Source of the DNA: an uncultured Celeribacter sp.
GTDB lineage: Bacteria > Pseudomonadota > Alphaproteobacteria > Rhodobacterales > Rhodobacteraceae
NCBI RefSeq assembly: GCF_963676475.2
Contig: NZ_CAXXQZ010000001.1
Location: 875,245-939,244, forward strand
Reading direction: 5' to 3'
Length of the DNA stretch: 64,000 nucleotides
Within the stretch, counting starts at the first letter, position 1. Every line of letters starts with the position of its first letter. Below are positions 3,538-49,529 of this stretch, piece by piece. The notes under the pieces were generated by a model. The model ran no database searches and was not told the DNA's origin. It worked only from the letters and a program-made list of their open reading frames with translations. Made by a program: the position numbers and the translations under genes.

Positions 3538-4544
3538 ATGTTTTGCCCCTTGAAGAGACCTGTCGGTTTGAACAGCAGGACGATGATCAGGATCGCGAAG
3601 GAGACGGCGAATTTGTAATCCGTCGACAAAAGCTGGACCAAGCCGTCCGGTGCCCAGCTGTCGGGGCCGAGATAGGTCACGACCTTTTTGAAGGCGTAGG
3701 TCAGGGTGACTTCCGAGAAGGCAATGACGAACCCGCCCGCGATGGCGCCCAGCGGATTGCCGATGCCGCCGACGATGGCCGCGGCGAAGACCGGCAGGAG
3801 AAGCTGCTGGAAGATGAAGGGTTTGAACGACTTGTCGAGGCCATAAAGAGCGCCTGCGATGGTCGCCAAAGCCGCCACCAAAAGCCAGGTGATCGTCACG
3901 ACGCGCTCCGGGTTGATGCCCGAGAGCAATGCCAAATCCTCGTTGTCCGAATAAGCCCGCATCGACTTGCCGGTGCGGGTTTTGTTCAGGAACCAAAAAA
4001 GTGCGGCCACGGTGATCATCGCGACAACCACGGTGATGACCTGCGTCGTGCGGATCGCGAGCCCTTCGGACAGGCCCGACCATTCCTTGAAATCGCGGGC
4101 ATTGACCACGAACCGCGCACCATCGGCAAAGCGGCGGTCGTCAGTGCCGACGATCATCCGCACCACGCCGTTGAGCACGAACATCACGCCGGTGGAAACG
4201 ATCACGAGCATCACCGGCGCAGCTTTGACTTTGCGGTAGAACTTGTAGACCACCTTGTCGGTCGCCAAGAGCAAAAGCGCCGTCACCAAGATACCAAAGG
4301 GCAGGGCCAAAAGCGCAGTGGGCAGGACGCCCAGCGAAATGCCCCAGCTTTGGAACAGCCCCGTGACCAGCACCACAACCATGGCCCCGAAGGACATGGT
4401 TTCACCGTGGGCAAAGTTCGAGAACCGCAACACGCCGTAAATCAGCGTGACGCCCAAAGCGCCAAGCGCGAGCTGCGCGCCATAGGTCGTGGCCGGAACC
4501 ACGACGAAATTTGTGAACGCAACCAATGCGTTGAGAATATCCAT
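3534..4544 (-). CDS. livH: Branched-chain amino acid ABC permease (LivH-like)
   Basis: LGALGVTLIYGVLRFSNFAHGE and RTGKSMRA motifs. Confidence 0.9.
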   Translation of the reverse strand: MDILNALVAFTNFVVVPATTYGAQLALGALGVTLIYGVLRFSNFAHGETMSFGAMVVVLVTGLFQSWGISLGVLPTALLALPFGILVTALLLLATDKVVYKFYRKVKAAPVMLVIVSTGVMFVLNGVVRMIVGTDDRRFADGARFVVNARDFKEWSGLSEGLAIRTTQVITVVVAMITVAALFWFLNKTRTGKSMRAYSDNEDLALLSGINPERVVTITWLLVAALATIAGALYGLDKSFKPFIFQQLLLPVFAAAIVGGIGNPLGAIAGGFVIAFSEVTLTYAFKKVVTYLGPDSWAPDGLVQLLSTDYKFAVSFAILIIVLLFKPTGLFKGQNI

Positions 4545-39383: not shown

Positions 39384-40838
39384 TCAGGTCAACCCGCCGA
39401 AACAGAGGTTCTTGATCTCCAGATAGTCGTCACAACCGTATTTCGAGCCTTCGCGACCCATGCCGGACTGTTTGACCCCGCCAAAGGGTGCCATTTCTGT
39501 CGAAATCGCGCCGGTGTTGATGCCGACCATCCCGGTTTCCAAGGCTTCACCCACACGCCAGGCGCGTTTCAGATCGTTGGTGAAGAAATAGGACGCCAGA
39601 CCGAATTCGGTGGCATTGGCAAACTCCACCGCCTCGTCTTCGGTGTCGAATTTCACCAGCGGCGCGAGAGGGCCAAAGGTTTCCTCGGTGGCGACTTTCA
39701 TCTTTTGCGTCACACCTTTGAGCACGGTCGGTTCAAAGAAGGTCTGCCCGAGGTTCGAGCGATTGCCGCCAACAACCACTTCGGCGCCTTTTTCGACCGC
39801 ATCCTTGATGTGATCCTCGACCTTGGCCACCGCCGCCGCGTTGATCAGCGGGCCGGTGTTGACGCCCTCGGCGAAGCCGTCGCCCAGTTTGAGCGATCCC
39901 AAAGCCGTGGCGAGTTTTTCGGAGAATTCATCATAAATGCCCGCCTGCACGTAAATCCGGTTGGCGCAGACACAGGTCTGGCCGTTATTGCGGAATTTGG
40001 CGAGCATGGCCCCCTCGACCGCCGCCTCCACATCGGCGTCGTCAAAGACGATGAAAGGCGCGTTGCCGCCCAGCTCCATCGACATTTTCTTGACCGTTTC
40101 GGCGCCTTGCGACAGCAGGATTTTGCCCACGCGGGTCGAACCGGTAAAGGTGATCTTGGCCACCTTCGGGTTGGCGCACAACTCTTGCCCCATGCCAGCG
40201 GCATCGAGGCCGGGCAGCACGTTGAACACACCCGCCGGGATGCCCGCACGTTCGGCCAGAACCGCCAGAGCCAGCGCAGACAAGGGCGTGAACTCGGAAG
40301 GCCGCGCCACCATGGAGCAGCCAACGGCAAGGGCAGGGGCCATCTTGCGCGCAATCATCGCATTTGGGAAGTTCCACGGCGTGATCGCACCGACAACGCC
40401 CACGGCTTGCTTGACGATCACCATACGCTTGTCGTTTTGCGGACCGGGGATCATGTCGCCGTAGATGCGCTTGGCCTCTTCCGCGAACCATTCGATGTAA
40501 GACGCGCCATAGAGGATTTCACCACGCGCCTCGGCCCAGGGCTTGCCCATCTCAAGGGTCAGGATGGTCGCCAGATCATCGGCATTTTCCACCATGAGAT
40601 CAAAGAGTTTTCGCAGTGTGTTCGAGCGGGTTTTCACATCCGCGCGCGCCCAGGCCCGTTGCGCCACATAGGCCGCATCAATCGCCATGGCGACGTCTTC
40701 GGCACTCAGATCCGCAACATGGGCGATCACGTCGCCCGTGGCCGGGTTCTCCACCGGGAATGTCTTTTTCGCCTCAACCCAGATGCCATTCACATAGGCG
40801 CGTGTTTCCATCAGGCTGGGGTCTTTCAATGCGCGCAT
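39384..40838 (-). CDS. gabD: NAD(P)-dependent succinate-semialdehyde dehydrogenase
   Basis: PWNFP, MELGGNAPFIVF, KFRNNGQTCVCANR, EETFGP. Confidence 0.92.
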   Translation of the reverse strand: MRALKDPSLMETRAYVNGIWVEAKKTFPVENPATGDVIAHVADLSAEDVAMAIDAAYVAQRAWARADVKTRSNTLRKLFDLMVENADDLATILTLEMGKPWAEARGEILYGASYIEWFAEEAKRIYGDMIPGPQNDKRMVIVKQAVGVVGAITPWNFPNAMIARKMAPALAVGCSMVARPSEFTPLSALALAVLAERAGIPAGVFNVLPGLDAAGMGQELCANPKVAKITFTGSTRVGKILLSQGAETVKKMSMELGGNAPFIVFDDADVEAAVEGAMLAKFRNNGQTCVCANRIYVQAGIYDEFSEKLATALGSLKLGDGFAEGVNTGPLINAAAVAKVEDHIKDAVEKGAEVVVGGNRSNLGQTFFEPTVLKGVTQKMKVATEETFGPLAPLVKFDTEDEAVEFANATEFGLASYFFTNDLKRAWRVGEALETGMVGINTGAISTEMAPFGGVKQSGMGREGSKYGCDDYLEIKNLCFGGLT

Positions 40839-41059
40839 TTTCGTTCTCCCATGCGGCCTTTGCGTCGGCCTTTATTTCGGGTTCGAGATGACCACGGGCG
40901 CAGAGCACGATGTCAGAGGAGCCGCCGCGATGGTCAAGACGCCTCAGTCGAGGCGATGGGCAACGGAGCACATTGGCATAAACACCGCAAGTTAAAACCT
41001 AAATAGCGCCTGCACAGCAGGATGATCGCAAATGCGAAGCGGAGGTGATTGTCCTATTA

Positions 41060-41087
41060 ATTGTACATAATACCAATTATCGGATAT
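41060..41087 (-). other. dif: dif-like XerCD site (attL of the prophage; probable functional chromosomal dif)
   Basis: Minus strand reads ATATCCGATAA-TTGGTA-TTATGTACAAT (11-6-11). The right arm resembles the E. coli XerD arm TTATGTTAAAT, and the site lies at the KOPS polarity switch. Confidence 0.8.
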
Positions 41088-44688: not shown

Positions 44689-45504
44689 TTAGGTTGACGT
44701 CGCCGGGCTGCGCATCGAGACCGAATAGATTTTGAAGTTCGTACCGGGCGCGGTGAAATCGAGTTTCACGCGGAAGTCGCGGAGGGTCATGGGCAGAACC
44801 TCGCCAAGGCGATTTTCGCTCATGAAGTCGATATGCGTGAAGCCGATCTGCGGAGCGCGGCCAGCAACGGACAGGTGCGCATTGCGGAGAACTTCGTCGC
44901 TTTCATGCACCTTCACGTTGTTGGTCAGCACCTCGACCTTGTCGATGTCATCCGATGTCACATGCAGGCCGAGAAGGTTGAAAGCGCCTTTGGGCAGGTC
45001 TGCAATTTCCTTGGTCCCCGCAAGGCCCATCTGGTCGGAGAAGCGCTGAATGCGCAAATGACCCGCGAAAGCGCGCGGCTCGGATTGCACCGCATAAACG
45101 GACAGCTCATTGACGGTAATGCCGTTTTTCAGGTCCATTTCAAGCGTCATGGTCGCGACGCCGGAGCCGGTGCCGTAAGCCGTGTTGTCCTCGCCCGCCA
45201 AGGTCCGCGCCCACGGCTGGGACAGGAATAACGGAAGAACGCCAGCGGACATTTCTTGTCCGTAATAAAGATTAAGAGAAACGAGGTCAGCCGCGTCAAT
45301 CTCGATCTTGGTTTCACCGTTCACCATCAGGCGAATCTCGCCGATATAGGCGCCCCAGTTGGCAACCTCAACATCACGCGGCGTCACGTTCACATTCATG
45401 CGGACATTGAGCCGGTGATAGGTCGGACCGATGGGCAGGTTTACGATTGCGGTTTGACCCGCGCCGATGCCCTGCGGGGTCGGCATTTTTTCGATACGGC
45501 GCAT
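44689..45504 (-). CDS. Double-jelly-roll major capsid protein (PM2 P2-like)
   Basis: 271 aa; LPIGPTY, KEIADLP, IDFMSE and DFRVKLD match recalled PM2 P2 motifs (LPIGQTY, TEIADLP, IDFMLE, DLRLKID). Confidence 0.88.
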   Translation of the reverse strand: MRRIEKMPTPQGIGAGQTAIVNLPIGPTYHRLNVRMNVNVTPRDVEVANWGAYIGEIRLMVNGETKIEIDAADLVSLNLYYGQEMSAGVLPLFLSQPWARTLAGEDNTAYGTGSGVATMTLEMDLKNGITVNELSVYAVQSEPRAFAGHLRIQRFSDQMGLAGTKEIADLPKGAFNLLGLHVTSDDIDKVEVLTNNVKVHESDEVLRNAHLSVAGRAPQIGFTHIDFMSENRLGEVLPMTLRDFRVKLDFTAPGTNFKIYSVSMRSPATST

Positions 45505-45884: not shown

Positions 45885-46601
45885 TTAGGCGCGTTTTTTC
45901 CGTTTCGGCGCGGAATTGTCGTTTGCCGCCGGTGGCAAGTTGGTGTTTGCCGGTTTCGGTTTTGCAGCGCTCCGGCCAAAGGTGATCTTGCCGCGTTCGA
46001 TCTTGCCCGCCTTCTCGTGCAGGTAGTGCAGATTTTCCGCCGGAAGATCGGAGACCCGGACGCCCAATTCCGCCGCCGCCGCCTGTTTGTCGCGCGGCCC
46101 CTTTTGGCGAAACACCACAGTTTCGGTGCAGTTGCCACGGAACCGCGTGTCAACCTCTGCGAGCCGCTGAGAGACGCCCACGACCTCAATCCCGAAGTGG
46201 CGACCACGGGAACAGATTTCCGCAAAGCCGGGGCATTTCTGCGCGCCCCCGGCGACCGGGAAAGCCATGTTCATTTCTTCGACCACAAGCGTGAGCTGGT
46301 CGCCCTGCCCCGTGTCCTTAAAAGGCTGTTGCGCCATCATCAGGAGCTTGCAGAGCGCGGAGAGGCTTTTCGTCTCCGCACCCGGTCGCGGGACGTAAGA
46401 AACCCGGAACTTGTTCCAGCTCTTGCGCATCCCGATGCGCACCCCGTCGAGATCGCGCACAGATTGCCCGCCGTACTCGTCCAGCGGGTCGAAGATCACG
46501 ACGCGGCGTTTCGGCTTAACGTAGCGCTTTGTAAAGGCGGATTTGCCGGACCCGGACGCCCCCCAGACGCCCAAGCGGCCCGCGTTGCTCGAAGCGCTCA
46601 T
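45885..46601 (-). CDS. FtsK-HerA/A32-like genome packaging ATPase (PM2 P9-like)
   Basis: GASGSGKS Walker A, LVVEE Walker B, SRGRHFG arginine finger, VSQR sensor. Confidence 0.9.
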   Translation of the reverse strand: MSASSNAGRLGVWGASGSGKSAFTKRYVKPKRRVVIFDPLDEYGGQSVRDLDGVRIGMRKSWNKFRVSYVPRPGAETKSLSALCKLLMMAQQPFKDTGQGDQLTLVVEEMNMAFPVAGGAQKCPGFAEICSRGRHFGIEVVGVSQRLAEVDTRFRGNCTETVVFRQKGPRDKQAAAAELGVRVSDLPAENLHYLHEKAGKIERGKITFGRSAAKPKPANTNLPPAANDNSAPKRKKRA

Positions 46602-47164
46602 GCCGCTTCCTCGTCCGCATTCATGGGCGGCGCATCGACGTTTGCGGCCTCCGGCGTTCGGCTGCTCTTGAAGCTGCCCTCTGGTGCCTCGACCGTCGCG
46701 GCCTTCGCCTTCCGCCGCTCGATCAGAATGGCCCGCACAGCGCCGGTTTGCATGATCAGGAAAGGCGTCATTCGCATGATCGCCGCAAAGGTGTCATTGC
46801 TCGCCAACAGGATTGACGGGAAGTACATTTCACAGAGATTATAAGCGGCGTCTGCCGCATCCGCGAAAGGCTCTTCCTTCTCGTCGGTGATCGCAAGCGG
46901 TTTGAAGTCAGGAAGCATCATCCCCGGCATGTTGAACGACAGGCGGAAGACAGCGGCGAAGGCTTCGCGGCTCATGCGCTCCGGCTCAATCTGACCGGCC
47001 AGCGGCTCCCCGTCCTCCCCAATCTGGATAGGATCATCGTCCGCGAAGGTCTCCCCGTCGATGTCGGGCGCGCGGAAGCTGTCGAGGTGCGCGCCCGGAT
47101 CGGAGCTGGTCACGGCCTCCGGTGCGTTCATATCGTCAAAATTCAGATCAGTATCCGTAGTCAT
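46598..47164 (-). CDS. Phage protein with acidic N-terminus, coupled to the ATPase
   Basis: 188 aa, D/E-rich first 60 residues; ATGA overlap with the ATPase. Confidence 0.65.
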   Translation of the reverse strand: MTTDTDLNFDDMNAPEAVTSSDPGAHLDSFRAPDIDGETFADDDPIQIGEDGEPLAGQIEPERMSREAFAAVFRLSFNMPGMMLPDFKPLAITDEKEEPFADAADAAYNLCEMYFPSILLASNDTFAAIMRMTPFLIMQTGAVRAILIERRKAKAATVEAPEGSFKSSRTPEAANVDAPPMNADEEAA

Positions 47165-47540
47165 TGAGCGTGTCCCCCGCTTTACGTTTCGTTACGGGTG
47201 CGCGGTCGTCGTTCGCGGTCTCCGGCTTATTAACGGGCGTATCGCTACGCGGTGCGGCGCTTGGCGCGGCGTTGGTGTTCGCGGCCACCATGGGCGCGGG
47301 TGCGATGCCTTCGCGGCGGTGATAATCGGCCCGTATCGCCTCCGATTTCACCGCGCCCCAGCGGACGCCAAAACCGCAGCTCTGGCCCTGCGCGTCGAAG
47401 TTTCCGCAGTTGTAATATGCTTTGCCGGAGACGTTGATTTTGACCTGAACACGCCCCCCACAACAGGCGCACTTGTCGATCCGAACAACGGTCCCTTGTG
47501 GCAAAGGAAACGGACGCGGGCGGCGTTGTTTGTCGCTCAT
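47148..47540 (-). CDS. Zinc-ribbon protein, putative late transcription activator
   Basis: CxxC...YYNC-x9-CGF; start MSDKQ at 47540. Confidence 0.65.
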   Translation of the reverse strand: MSDKQRRPRPFPLPQGTVVRIDKCACCGGRVQVKINVSGKAYYNCGNFDAQGQSCGFGVRWGAVKSEAIRADYHRREGIAPAPMVAANTNAAPSAAPRSDTPVNKPETANDDRAPVTKRKAGDTLNDYGY

Positions 47541-47776
47541 GATGCACCCCCAACGCGTAGCGAAGCGCGGTTTGCTTCCCACGCCTCCAAAACCTGTTCT
47601 TGGTGCGCCTCAACCTCTTCGGGCGTCATGATGCGGACGCCGAAAAGGTCTTGGCCGGGATAGGCGGCGCGGAACCGGGCGCGGGCGTCCTTCGGGCTGT
47701 TGGCCGCGATCATGTGGGACCGTGCGCCCAGCTCACCGACAAGGGCCGAGACGCGATAGCGGGTTTTCGTGGTCAT
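47537..47776 (-). CDS. Phage hypothetical protein
   Basis: 79 aa, overlapping start/stop with both neighbours. Confidence 0.6.
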   Translation of the reverse strand: MTTKTRYRVSALVGELGARSHMIAANSPKDARARFRAAYPGQDLFGVRIMTPEEVEAHQEQVLEAWEANRASLRVGGAS

Positions 47777-47952
47777 TGCGCCACCTCCCCGGCCATGGCG
47801 TCGATCCGCGCGGCCATTTTCTCCATCACGTCCAGCGTGTCCGTCACGAGGTCGATCACCTCGCCCGGTTTTGTGGCGAGCATCATGGGGGATTTCTTCG
47901 CCAGATCGGCGGCGCGGTCGCGCAGCATCCGCGTTTCGTCTTTGAGTTGCAT
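47773..47952 (-). CDS. Phage hypothetical helical protein
   Basis: MQLKDETRMLRDRAADL...; RBS GAAGGG; translationally coupled. Confidence 0.6.
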   Translation of the reverse strand: MQLKDETRMLRDRAADLAKKSPMMLATKPGEVIDLVTDTLDVMEKMAARIDAMAGEVAQ

Positions 47953-48419
47953 TTCGGGTGACCCTTCGTGGTTAACGTGCAGGGAAGGTAACCAGATACC
48001 ACCACACGCCAACCCAAAAAAAACAAAAAACGCCTCAGGGGCCGTTTACAGGCGCTCTAAGGCGTTTTGGGTGCCGTGGTCACAAAAAGGCCCTATCGCC
48101 TCCCCTGCCCCCGCTGTGCGTCCAGTTTGCGGCCATTCTGTTCTTCCCCCGTACCTCCCCCGTTCCATCAGCCGGAACAAACGGCGGCAATTCTGGGGCG
48201 AAATTTTCAACCCTTCCCCAATTCATGGCGGGCCGAAGGCCCTCAATATCCCGGCCTCTCTCCCGCATGGCGCTCACCCGTACCGGCCCTCTCAACCCGC
48301 ACCCAACGCTGCGCCATGCCTTCCGCCGTCCCTCTCCACCCCGCACTTTATCAACTTGTTCCCCGACTAGGGGAACGCCTCATATCGTTGGTTCCTTTGG
48401 GAACCATGGAGGGGGGGGT

Positions 48420-48484
48420 AAATATTCACCCCCTTTTGGGGGAAATTTTCACCCCCTTTATCACTAAATTTTCACCCCCTTTAT
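48420..48484. repeat. Three iteron-like direct repeats with exact 23-bp phasing
   Basis: AAA(T/A)TTTCACCCCCTTT at 48420, 48443 and 48466 (the last two identical over 19 bp); degenerate copy at 48201. Confidence 0.85.
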
Positions 48485-48500
48485 TAATCCTGACAGAAAG

Positions 48501-48509
48501 TTATCCACA
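48501..48509 (+). promoter_or_regulatory. DnaA box next to the iterons
   Basis: Perfect TTATCCACA. Confidence 0.75.
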
Positions 48510-48515
48510 GGCACG

Positions 48516-48538
48516 AAAAAGCCCGCCGGGTGGCGGGC
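48516..48538 (-). terminator. Intrinsic terminator of the rep operon
   Basis: GCCCGCC-gggt-GGCGGGC followed by T5 on the minus strand. Confidence 0.75.
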
Positions 48539-48566
48539 CTATCTCTGTCGGCTGGTCTCGATGTCC

Positions 48567-49058
48567 CTAAAACGTTTCTGGGTTTTCAGGGTCGCCCATG
48601 ATCTCTAGGGCCTTAGACGGCCCGTATTTGCCGCGCAGGAAGCGCCATGTTGCTTCCCTGTCCCGGTTGGTCTCCATGACCTCCATTTGATCGTCTGACG
48701 GTGATTTTTCCTTGCCGGGGACGGTCAAAAGCCATGTGGTCGGCACCTTGCGCCCGCCCTGCCAGTTTTTCATGGGCTTTAGGCTTCCTTCATTGCGCAG
48801 AAAGCGGACGGACGTTCTAACCGTGTCATAGCAACACCCGGCGTCAGCCATGAGTTGTTCTTTTGTGATCGTGACGACCGGCCTATGAAAATCTGCCTTA
48901 TTCCACATGGCCTCTAAAACAAGTCTCTGCGCCAACTTGGCTTTGGTGTTCAAAAAGGCGGCTTTTCTGGTCCGGCGGGTAGCGGCGCAAGCTGATCTGT
49001 ATTCGGCCTCATTTGCGAATCCTGCGCGCTGCCATTTTGGGGCTCTTTTTGTCGTCAT
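48567..49058 (-). CDS. Winged-helix protein, putative replication initiator
   Basis: ITKEQLMADAGCCYDTVRTSVRFLRNEGSL HTH plus wing (GGRKVPTTW); directly adjacent to the iterons and DnaA box. Confidence 0.6.
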   Translation of the reverse strand: MTTKRAPKWQRAGFANEAEYRSACAATRRTRKAAFLNTKAKLAQRLVLEAMWNKADFHRPVVTITKEQLMADAGCCYDTVRTSVRFLRNEGSLKPMKNWQGGRKVPTTWLLTVPGKEKSPSDDQMEVMETNRDREATWRFLRGKYGPSKALEIMGDPENPETF

Positions 49059-49282
49059 CTCTTCGCCCCAGCACTGCGAAGCATTGCCGCTACATCATCG
49101 ACCATAAACATCAGCGGAAGATTGCCGATTGTCCCGGCCTCTTTCATGGCTTTGATCTGCAAGGAAATGGCCGCTTCGGTGCGCTTTAGTGCCCTAGCAA
49201 TGGTCGCATTCTTAATTCCACGCGCATATCCGATGCGGATGCAGTCTTTTTCAAATTCAGTTATTAACCTGCCCCGTGCCAA
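49055..49282 (-). CDS. Small HTH regulator (TTG start)
   Basis: KNATIARALKRTEAAISLQIKAM HTH; GAAAGG RBS; ATGA coupling to rep. Confidence 0.7.
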   Translation of the reverse strand: MARGRLITEFEKDCIRIGYARGIKNATIARALKRTEAAISLQIKAMKEAGTIGNLPLMFMVDDVAAMLRSAGAKR

Positions 49283-49445
49283 TTCTTGACTGCCTTTCTG
49301 TATTGGCGTTAATATGGGAACAGGCCTCTAACGAGGTGATGCATCCTTGGTCGGGTGTGTCGGCTGGCCTCCAGTTTATCGGCTCCTGCCGTTTGGCAAC
49401 TGGACTGCCAGCCCATAACCCCCAGCCCTACATATCGTATCTACG

Positions 49446-49473
49446 TTTTACCGTAGTACCAATTATAAGATAA
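49446..49473 (-). other. Degenerate dif-like site (attR)
   Basis: Minus strand reads TTATCTTATAA-TTGGTA-CTACGGTAAAA: same 6-bp core as attL, related XerC arm, degenerate XerD arm. Confidence 0.75.
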
Positions 49474-49529
49474 TAGACACAATGCTGAGCTCAATACCAA
49501 ACCCATGCAACCCATGCAAAACCCAACGC

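Follow-up and report, generated by a model that had tools for sequence, protein, structure and literature searches.

A probable lambda-O-like iteron origin with a minimal winged-helix initiator in a small tailless prophage of an uncultured Celeribacter

An 8.4-kb tailless prophage lies between positions 41059 and 49475 of a 64-kb stretch of DNA (the window, by which we mean the whole stretch analysed) from an uncultured Celeribacter sp. of the Rhodobacteraceae (assembly GCF_963676475.2, contig NZ_CAXXQZ010000001.1). All genes of the element are on the minus strand, and their order is colinear with that of PM2. Because it encodes a PM2-type capsid protein and packaging ATPase, the element was assigned to the Jorvik/PM2 type, and by its gene content it is a prophage of the kind represented by Rhodobacter phage Jorvik and Marinomonas phage YY, within the PM2 lineage (Vinavirales). 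The present work concerns its putative replication region, a predicted two-gene operon and the non-coding DNA behind it, which a first-pass annotation of the window had described as a plasmid-like theta replicon in a PM2-like virus.

The first gene of the predicted operon (49055-49282, minus strand) encodes a 75-amino-acid (aa) helix-turn-helix (HTH) protein, for which only weak HTH matches were obtained, and overlaps by 4 nt the second gene (48567-49058, minus strand), which encodes the 163-aa winged-helix protein P0001, the proposed origin-binding initiator. A small HTH gene is found at the same position in all relatives. The 75-aa protein is the positional counterpart of Gp1, the lysis-lysogeny regulator of Jorvik, and BLAST gave no similarity between the two. 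Together with about 550 bp of non-coding DNA, the two genes occupy the place that in PM2 is taken by orfs d and e and by the gene for the 634-aa rolling-circle protein P12. A tblastn search with PM2 P12 yielded no significant match in the element, while P9 and P2 did match. The Pfam families Phage_GPA and Rep_trans are absent from the entire genome, and none of the open reading frames (ORFs) of the element gave a Pfam match to HUH or rolling-circle replication proteins; the first-pass annotation had likewise seen no HUH Rep in the element.

On the coding (minus) strand, the 163-aa gene is followed by a terminator, a DnaA box and the repeats, in that order. The 17-nt consensus AAAT(A/T)TTCACCCCCTTT occurs three times, at 48420, 48443 and 48466, each time with 0 mismatches. 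When up to three mismatches were allowed, no further match was found in the 64 kb, where 0.22 were expected, and 0 of 100 shuffled sequences reached three copies. These copies belong to three 23-bp iterons with an exact 23-bp period (48415-48483, minus strand), each of which has an invariant AAAGGGGG ahead of a variable pseudo-palindromic core. The unit nearest 48415, the third on the minus strand, lies within a 20-bp near-palindrome (48414-48433). A perfect DnaA box, TTATCCACA (48501-48509, plus strand), is located 17 bp from the repeats and is the only copy in the window, where 0.08 were expected; the 3.9-Mb genome contains 17 copies. The predicted intrinsic terminator of the operon (48514-48541, minus strand) consists of a hairpin of -20.6 kcal/mol (z -3.9) followed by a T-run and is kept in L007 (phage YY), L013, L016, L021 and L031-L038. 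The repeats lie beyond it, at least 84 bp past the stop codon of the 163-aa gene, and no repeat copy was found upstream of the operon. The iteron/DnaA-box stretch is the AT-richest part of the intergenic region, though only moderately so: its GC content is 37-42%, compared with about 60% for the element around it.

Three repeats with an exact 23-bp period, a palindrome around the first of them, a perfect DnaA box 17 bp away, and an adjoining terminator and 163-aa winged-helix ORF had all been described by the first-pass annotation and were recovered here, the last with a predicted winged helix. A degenerate fourth repeat, which it had placed at 48201, was dropped. This copy matches 13 of 17 bases and lies 219 bp away inside a separate conserved block, and it is not counted as an iteron because that block does not track the relatives' own repeat cores.

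The confident AlphaFold model of P0001 (pLDDT 84) shows a MarR-like winged HTH topology with flanking N- and C-terminal helices, the C-terminal part being formed by just two short helices. A sequence search of the PDB and a fold search with P0001 returned only generic winged-helix matches. The homologue from phage YY gave HTH_36 with an E-value of 0.011, under the Pfam cut-off. An exhaustive profile search yielded 131 representative relatives, and among 99 remote homologues scanned, HTH_36 was detected in 25 and Phage_rep_O in 11, making 36 that match a family of the lambda O type, and DnaA_N in 17 (above the Pfam cut-off). The DnaA_N matches scored 35-39 bits, including one protein from a genome of the same family with 35 bits. 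The relatives bearing DnaA_N share their entire N-terminal 115 residues with P0001, which ends in its two short helices where those relatives have a DnaA-like domain. The idea that a cis DnaA box stands in for the DnaA_N domain of the relatives was rejected, as L037 and L038 combine the domain with a perfect box, and a 7/9 box occurs in L024. Single-sequence hhalign comparisons with the Rep_O/HTH_36 ORFs of viral contigs were uninformative except for L053 (probability 93%), and scans of the viral contigs with peptide patterns for P0001 and for the DnaA_N subgroup found nothing. Samples of 400 genomes of the host family and 400 of the class gave just 2 further matches each, which makes the module rare in the searched set of genomes.

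Twelve related elements, whose encoded proteins are 55-95% identical to P0001, were compared. The layout of the gene followed by three units with an exact 23-bp period was present in 12 of 12, each unit combining the invariant AAAGGGGG with a variable pseudo-palindromic core, and in all of them an invariant C-run and TCCA follow the array. Nine of the twelve have a perfect TGTGGATAA 25-27 nt before unit 1, also in cases where the flanks have diverged and the terminator is missing. Just past the rep stop codon, where the others have the DnaA box, L010, L014 and L018 carry a conserved GGGTACCTTT(A)CG motif, which may be a site for another factor. The repeat cores change in step with the recognition helix of the protein: L010 on one side and L014/L018 on the other have identical wings, different helices and different repeat cores. 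This co-variation fits direct recognition of the repeats by the protein.

Arrays with a period of 22-23 bp also adjoin the genes of more distant homologues. L024/L031 has four 22-bp units beyond a terminator, and L032-L038 have four AAAGGGGG units, with a perfect DnaA box in two of these loci (L037/L038). In L025, at least five 22-bp units follow a small HTH gene and a winged-helix gene (L025 1000-3187). This module adjoins a gene for a Zot-type assembly ATPase (Pfam E 4e-24), an inovirus-like context. It thus apparently belongs to a filamentous-phage-like element, so that the cassette seems to move between virus types.

The closest described relative is Marinomonas phage YY (8,828 bp, circular), followed more distantly by Rhodobacter phage Jorvik. 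Phage YY encodes a P0001 homologue with 65% identity and shares the DnaA box, the repeats and the hairpins described below; its array lies between convergent operons. The Jorvik family, its integration through XerCD/dif, and the Gp1 HTH protein and 212-aa putative replicase Gp2 were described in 2023, with no mention of an origin, iterons or DnaA (PMC10589892). Members of this family are tailless, with circular genomes of about 8.8 kb; like the element in the window, they encode a PM2-type capsid protein and ATPase and no integrase and have a dif-like attP for XerCD, and Jorvik has beside attP a two-gene 'replication operon' for a small HTH protein and a short putative replicase, which the two genes in the window match in position and size. 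In contrast to P0001, Gp2 has a C-terminal domain, and the remote similarity between the two is confined to the winged helix. Three 22-23-bp units lie inside gp2 (L022 735-800), in the linker-coding part between its two domains, where they encode a repeated peptide, whereas the gene in the window stops before the repeats and is followed by the non-coding DNA. Behind the gp2 repeats come an AT-rich stretch and a hairpin whose loop is TGGTC (L022 845-866). The origin of Jorvik is probably intragenic, inside gp2, as in lambda O, and the record carries no annotation of it.

A search that ignored proteins was then made in the DNA of IMG/VR for three AAAGGGGG motifs spaced 22-23 bp apart. It recovered 24 contigs of very different base composition, and most of the arrays lay inside an ORF. 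Among ten array-containing ORFs tested, seven had HTH_36, two had Phage_rep_O, and one was a member of the P0001 family with a phage C-terminal domain. Because these protein-blind matches fall in HTH_36/Phage_rep_O genes, the AAAGGGGG array can be taken as a signature of lambda-O-like initiators and origins, and this search is the strongest argument for reading the repeats of the window as iterons and not as operators. One contig, L058, contains at about 4064-4115 a Phage_rep_O gene with AAAGGGGGTAAT-type iterons and, right behind them, 23 nt that recur unchanged in the AT-rich part of ori-lambda; it resembles a lambdoid origin whose iterons have another specificity.

The likeness to lambda O and ori-lambda extends to an N-terminal winged helix and to three or four pseudo-palindromic iterons that end in G/C-runs and are spaced 20-24 bp apart. 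Lambda has four iterons inside O, spaced 20/24/23 bp, then an AT-rich stretch and a palindrome, and the order in the window resembles it: iterons, AT-richer DNA, and then the C-run and two hairpins, H1 and H2. Arrays of the AAAGGGGG type within Rep_O/HTH_36 genes, one of them (L058) with the lambda-identical AT-rich stretch, add to this likeness. The two systems differ in that P0001 is under the Pfam threshold and has no C-terminal domain of the kind that recruits the helicase loader in lambda O, that the origin in the window would lie outside the gene, while intragenic arrays are met in Jorvik, L053 and L055, and that the window has a DnaA box, of which ori-lambda has none.

Directly beyond the iterons lies a conserved segment of about 330 nt (48080-48410, minus strand), which is G-rich and non-coding. 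Hairpin H1 (48389-48406, minus strand; -10.1 kcal/mol, z -2.9) stands directly past the invariant C-run/TCCA and shows compensated stem changes in relatives. Hairpin H2 (48358-48376, minus strand; -12.6 kcal/mol, z -3.3) has a conserved T(A/G/C)GTC loop. In 14 of 15 elements it occupies the same relative position, its stem being compensated in eight different ways, and it also occurs within Jorvik gp2. In the rest of the structured segment (48080-48357, minus strand), about 250 more nt are conserved; they are G-rich on the coding strand and are regarded as non-coding because their indels are not multiples of three. The supposed fourth repeat (48196-48217) lies in this part. In consensus folds of the segment, 18 of 51 predicted pairs were changed on both sides, and many G-U pairs were formed on the coding strand; no Rfam match was obtained at E-values up to 1. 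The invariant C-run could pair over a long range with distal G-runs. A UUCG tetraloop considered for a hairpin H3 was discarded, since the pairing gives a 3-nt TTC loop. The segment was assigned to the replication cassette because it is kept on the rep-iteron side when the packaging block of YY is inverted. This block, the ATPase and its neighbours, is inverted in YY (L007 1170-3304) and Jorvik (L022 1095-3262) relative to the window (45885-48012), while in the window and most prophage relatives all genes point in one direction, as in PM2. That the segment derives by decay from the C-terminal domain of a Jorvik-like Gp2 was rejected: tblastn showed no similarity, and L031 has both DnaA_N and the hairpin. 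A second intrinsic terminator (48018-48068, minus strand; -23.3 kcal/mol, z -3.7, then a T-run), kept in L013 and L021, stands just before the packaging/late genes and implies either a discrete transcript upstream of it or control of read-through into the downstream operon.

Taken together, these data point, with a probability that we put at roughly 80%, to an iteron origin of the lambda-O kind in the 8.4-kb prophage, with a minimal initiator and help from host DnaA. The layout, the conservation of the DnaA box, the co-variation of helix and repeats, the homology and the absence of HUH proteins support the reading as origin and initiator; binding, dependence on DnaA, firing and silencing are proposed by extension from them. 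On this model, a two-gene operon for a small HTH regulator and the 163-aa winged-helix initiator would end at the terminator, and the origin would lie directly behind it, comprising the DnaA box, the three pseudo-palindromic 23-bp iterons, the C-run and the conserved hairpins. Dimers of the 163-aa protein would bind the three sites in the manner of lambda O at ori-lambda, and DnaA on the adjoining box would assist in melting the AT-richer iteron/spacer DNA and in recruiting the host helicase, an aid that may compensate for the absent C-terminal recruitment domain. Replication would be bidirectional (theta type) and not of the rolling-circle type, and in the lysogen the origin would be silent because the initiator operon is repressed. 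The first-pass annotation had further suggested that the virus may persist as an episome.

Several results weigh against this interpretation. P0001 itself has no sequence match in Pfam, NCBIfam or the PDB, and Pfam HTH_36 and Phage_rep_O gave nothing even at E-values up to 10. The links from its family profile to the winged helix of Jorvik Gp2 (hhalign probability 71%, E 3.8e-5) and to lambda O (probability 34%) are weak. Foldseek ranked MarR-type regulators on top, and plasmid RepA_N structures matched no better and in a similarly weak range (template-modelling score about 0.35), so that the fold leaves P0001 undecided between regulator and initiator. The three relatives that lack the DnaA box form one clade, the co-variation of recognition helix and repeats is confounded by shared descent, and a long AT-rich unwinding element was not seen in the intergenic region, where the lowest GC content is about 37%. 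In addition, the array lies upstream of the packaging genes in the window and may have a regulatory role there.

This last point leads to the alternative that we consider the least improbable, although still unlikely, namely that the three sites are operators through which P0001, as a MarR-like regulator, controls a promoter in or beside the array, serving the structured transcript or the packaging/late genes, and that replication starts elsewhere or otherwise. The best fold matches are indeed MarR-family repressors, PHROG 2030, a 'transcriptional regulator', was matched with an E-value of 0.009, three pseudo-palindromes at intervals of about 23 bp recall lambda OR1-3, and the position of the array upstream of co-directional genes recurs in most prophage relatives, with a terminator ahead of the packaging genes that fits regulated read-through. 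In YY and Jorvik, however, the repeats are not promoter operators, because they lie between convergent operons or inside a gene, and the same type of array marks initiator genes in unrelated phages. The sites of a MarR-type repressor overlap a promoter under its control, usually its own, but no copy was found upstream of the operon, and the sites lie behind the terminator. The homologues carry DnaA_N, Phage_rep_O or HTH_36, a conserved DnaA box adjoins the array, and the element encodes no other replication function. Equating the array with the operator of the PM2 late promoter was rejected, because a PM2-type late promoter sits between the ATPase and the capsid genes, between P9 and P7/P2, and not at the array.

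That the module is a recently captured plasmid replicon of the RepA/pi/TrfA iteron class seems improbable. Iteron plasmids such as pPS10, R6K, RK2 and pSC101 replicate by the theta mode in dependence on host DnaA and DnaB. They share with the window tandem iterons, a DnaA box and a winged-helix initiator, and it is this anatomy that favours capture. PM2-like prophages with plasmid-type Rep genes (pAS28 and pRA2 types) are documented, and the Pseudomonas RepJ and pRA2 replicons likewise have, and need for replication, some 0.5 kb of structured DNA that lies downstream of rep (PMC5304414). A tblastn search against 72,556 plasmids found no homologue, however, so that of the earlier description the non-rolling-circle origin built from iterons, a DnaA box and a short winged-helix initiator was retained and the plasmid source was not. 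The Rep proteins of iteron plasmids have two winged-helix domains (Rep_3) and usually regulate themselves through an inverted repeat in their promoter, whereas P0001 has a single winged helix in its 163 aa and no second site upstream, and neither Rep_3 nor any other family of plasmid Rep proteins was matched. In pRA2 the iterons are upstream of rep, unlike those of the window, and P0001 has no detectable sequence similarity to any of the plasmid records. The module is moreover common to the whole virus family and to an inovirus-like element, and its repeat type is that of phage O-like initiators. These comparisons make the module a native part of the Jorvik/YY family; its predicted mechanism is of the same general kind as that of plasmid replicons. 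We regard as very improbable a centromere-like partition site, with the winged-helix protein acting as a TubR/ParR-type adaptor that stabilises an episomal form. Tandem direct repeats with small DNA-binding proteins are typical of partition sites, and the centromere-binding protein of pNOB8 was among the weak fold matches, but the element encodes no nucleoside triphosphatase of the ParA, ParM or TubZ type, the DnaA box and the DnaA_N/Rep_O relatives point to initiation, and integration at dif makes partition less necessary.

Within the preferred reading as an iteron origin, a further and more tentative proposal concerns the structured segment. The initiator may have been reduced to little beyond its DNA-binding domain, with the ~330-nt segment an obligatory cis part of the origin, which we think rather unlikely on balance. 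If so, the segment could serve as a transcript that primes or activates, or as a single-strand signal for priming or helicase loading, and could thereby do the work of the protein domain that is present in lambda O and in the DnaA_N relatives.

The remaining features of the element agree with its assignment. The PM2-type major capsid protein (44689-45504, minus strand) matches Pfam P2_N (1e-20) and P2_C (2e-18) and was found by tblastn with PM2 P2 (1.8e-13), and the packaging ATPase of PM2 P9 type (45885-46601, minus strand) by tblastn with PM2 P9 (3e-9). A 144-aa ORF (47148-47582, minus strand) with a weak zinc-ribbon match is at the position of the PM2 zinc-ribbon transcription factor P14, to which tblastn showed no similarity. 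Between attP and the first gene, a conserved, likely regulatory region (49283-49445, minus strand) is near-identical to that of phage YY (L007 8650-8828), and these approximately 160 nt are far better conserved between the window and YY than the genes are. No iteron-like site was found within it. Duplication of its counterpart in Jorvik gives the virulent mutant Jorvik2 (PMC10589892).

The left end of the prophage is a chromosomal dif-like site of 11-6-11 structure (41059-41086), which is the only dif-like 28-mer match of the genome and part of a 33-bp stretch kept in a congener. The right end (49446-49475) is the phage-side dif-like site (attR), a partial copy that has TACCAATTAT and one flanking arm in common with the left site and is almost the same as the only attP-like stretch in circular phage YY. 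Both sites lie on the plateau of the GC-skew maximum (870-920 kb of C1, a 3.09-Mb replicon). On the host side, an aldehyde dehydrogenase gene ends at 40838, and DNA conserved in congeners starts again at about 49543. No integrase or recombinase domain was found among the ORFs of the element. Integration at the terminus/dif, as the first-pass annotation had proposed, is supported by the dif-like sites at both ends and their position on the GC-skew plateau. On the same replicon, two further perfect DnaA boxes (C1:2913565 and 2913630) are found on opposite strands with 65 bp between them. The minimum of the cumulative GC skew is about 17 kb away, and the pair likely marks the chromosomal origin (oriC).

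Both the virus family and the swapping of its replication modules have already been published, so that the finding, though sound, is fairly ordinary. Replacement of the replication module, put forward by the first-pass annotation, is upheld for the element, at the P12 position, but as an idea it dates from 2007, when such replacements were described in PM2-like prophages, among them that of Vibrio sp. MED222 with its pRA2-type replication system, which, like the element, has no P12-type Rep and carries the identical TTATCCACA downstream of a plasmid-like RepA (PMC1950889). Winged-helix initiators and frequent replacement in the Vinavirales were reported in 2022 (PMC9502842). What appears new is an explicit candidate origin for the YY-like lineage, with a conserved, predicted structured segment fused to it, together with the probable intragenic iterons of Jorvik and a putative link, through the repeat type, between this family and lambda-O-type initiators.

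Jorvik-like prophages and others of the PM2 lineage are common in marine Alphaproteobacteria, and to our knowledge no origin has so far been defined for them. Our findings offer a testable origin of about 100 bp with a 163-aa initiator, a possible basis for a small vector for Rhodobacteraceae, and another clean case in which the replication module is replaced at a fixed position while the structural genes are conserved. Only the structured segment could open the way to something new: if its proposed role is true, the cassette would represent a viral origin that is minimal in protein, a kind so far undescribed.

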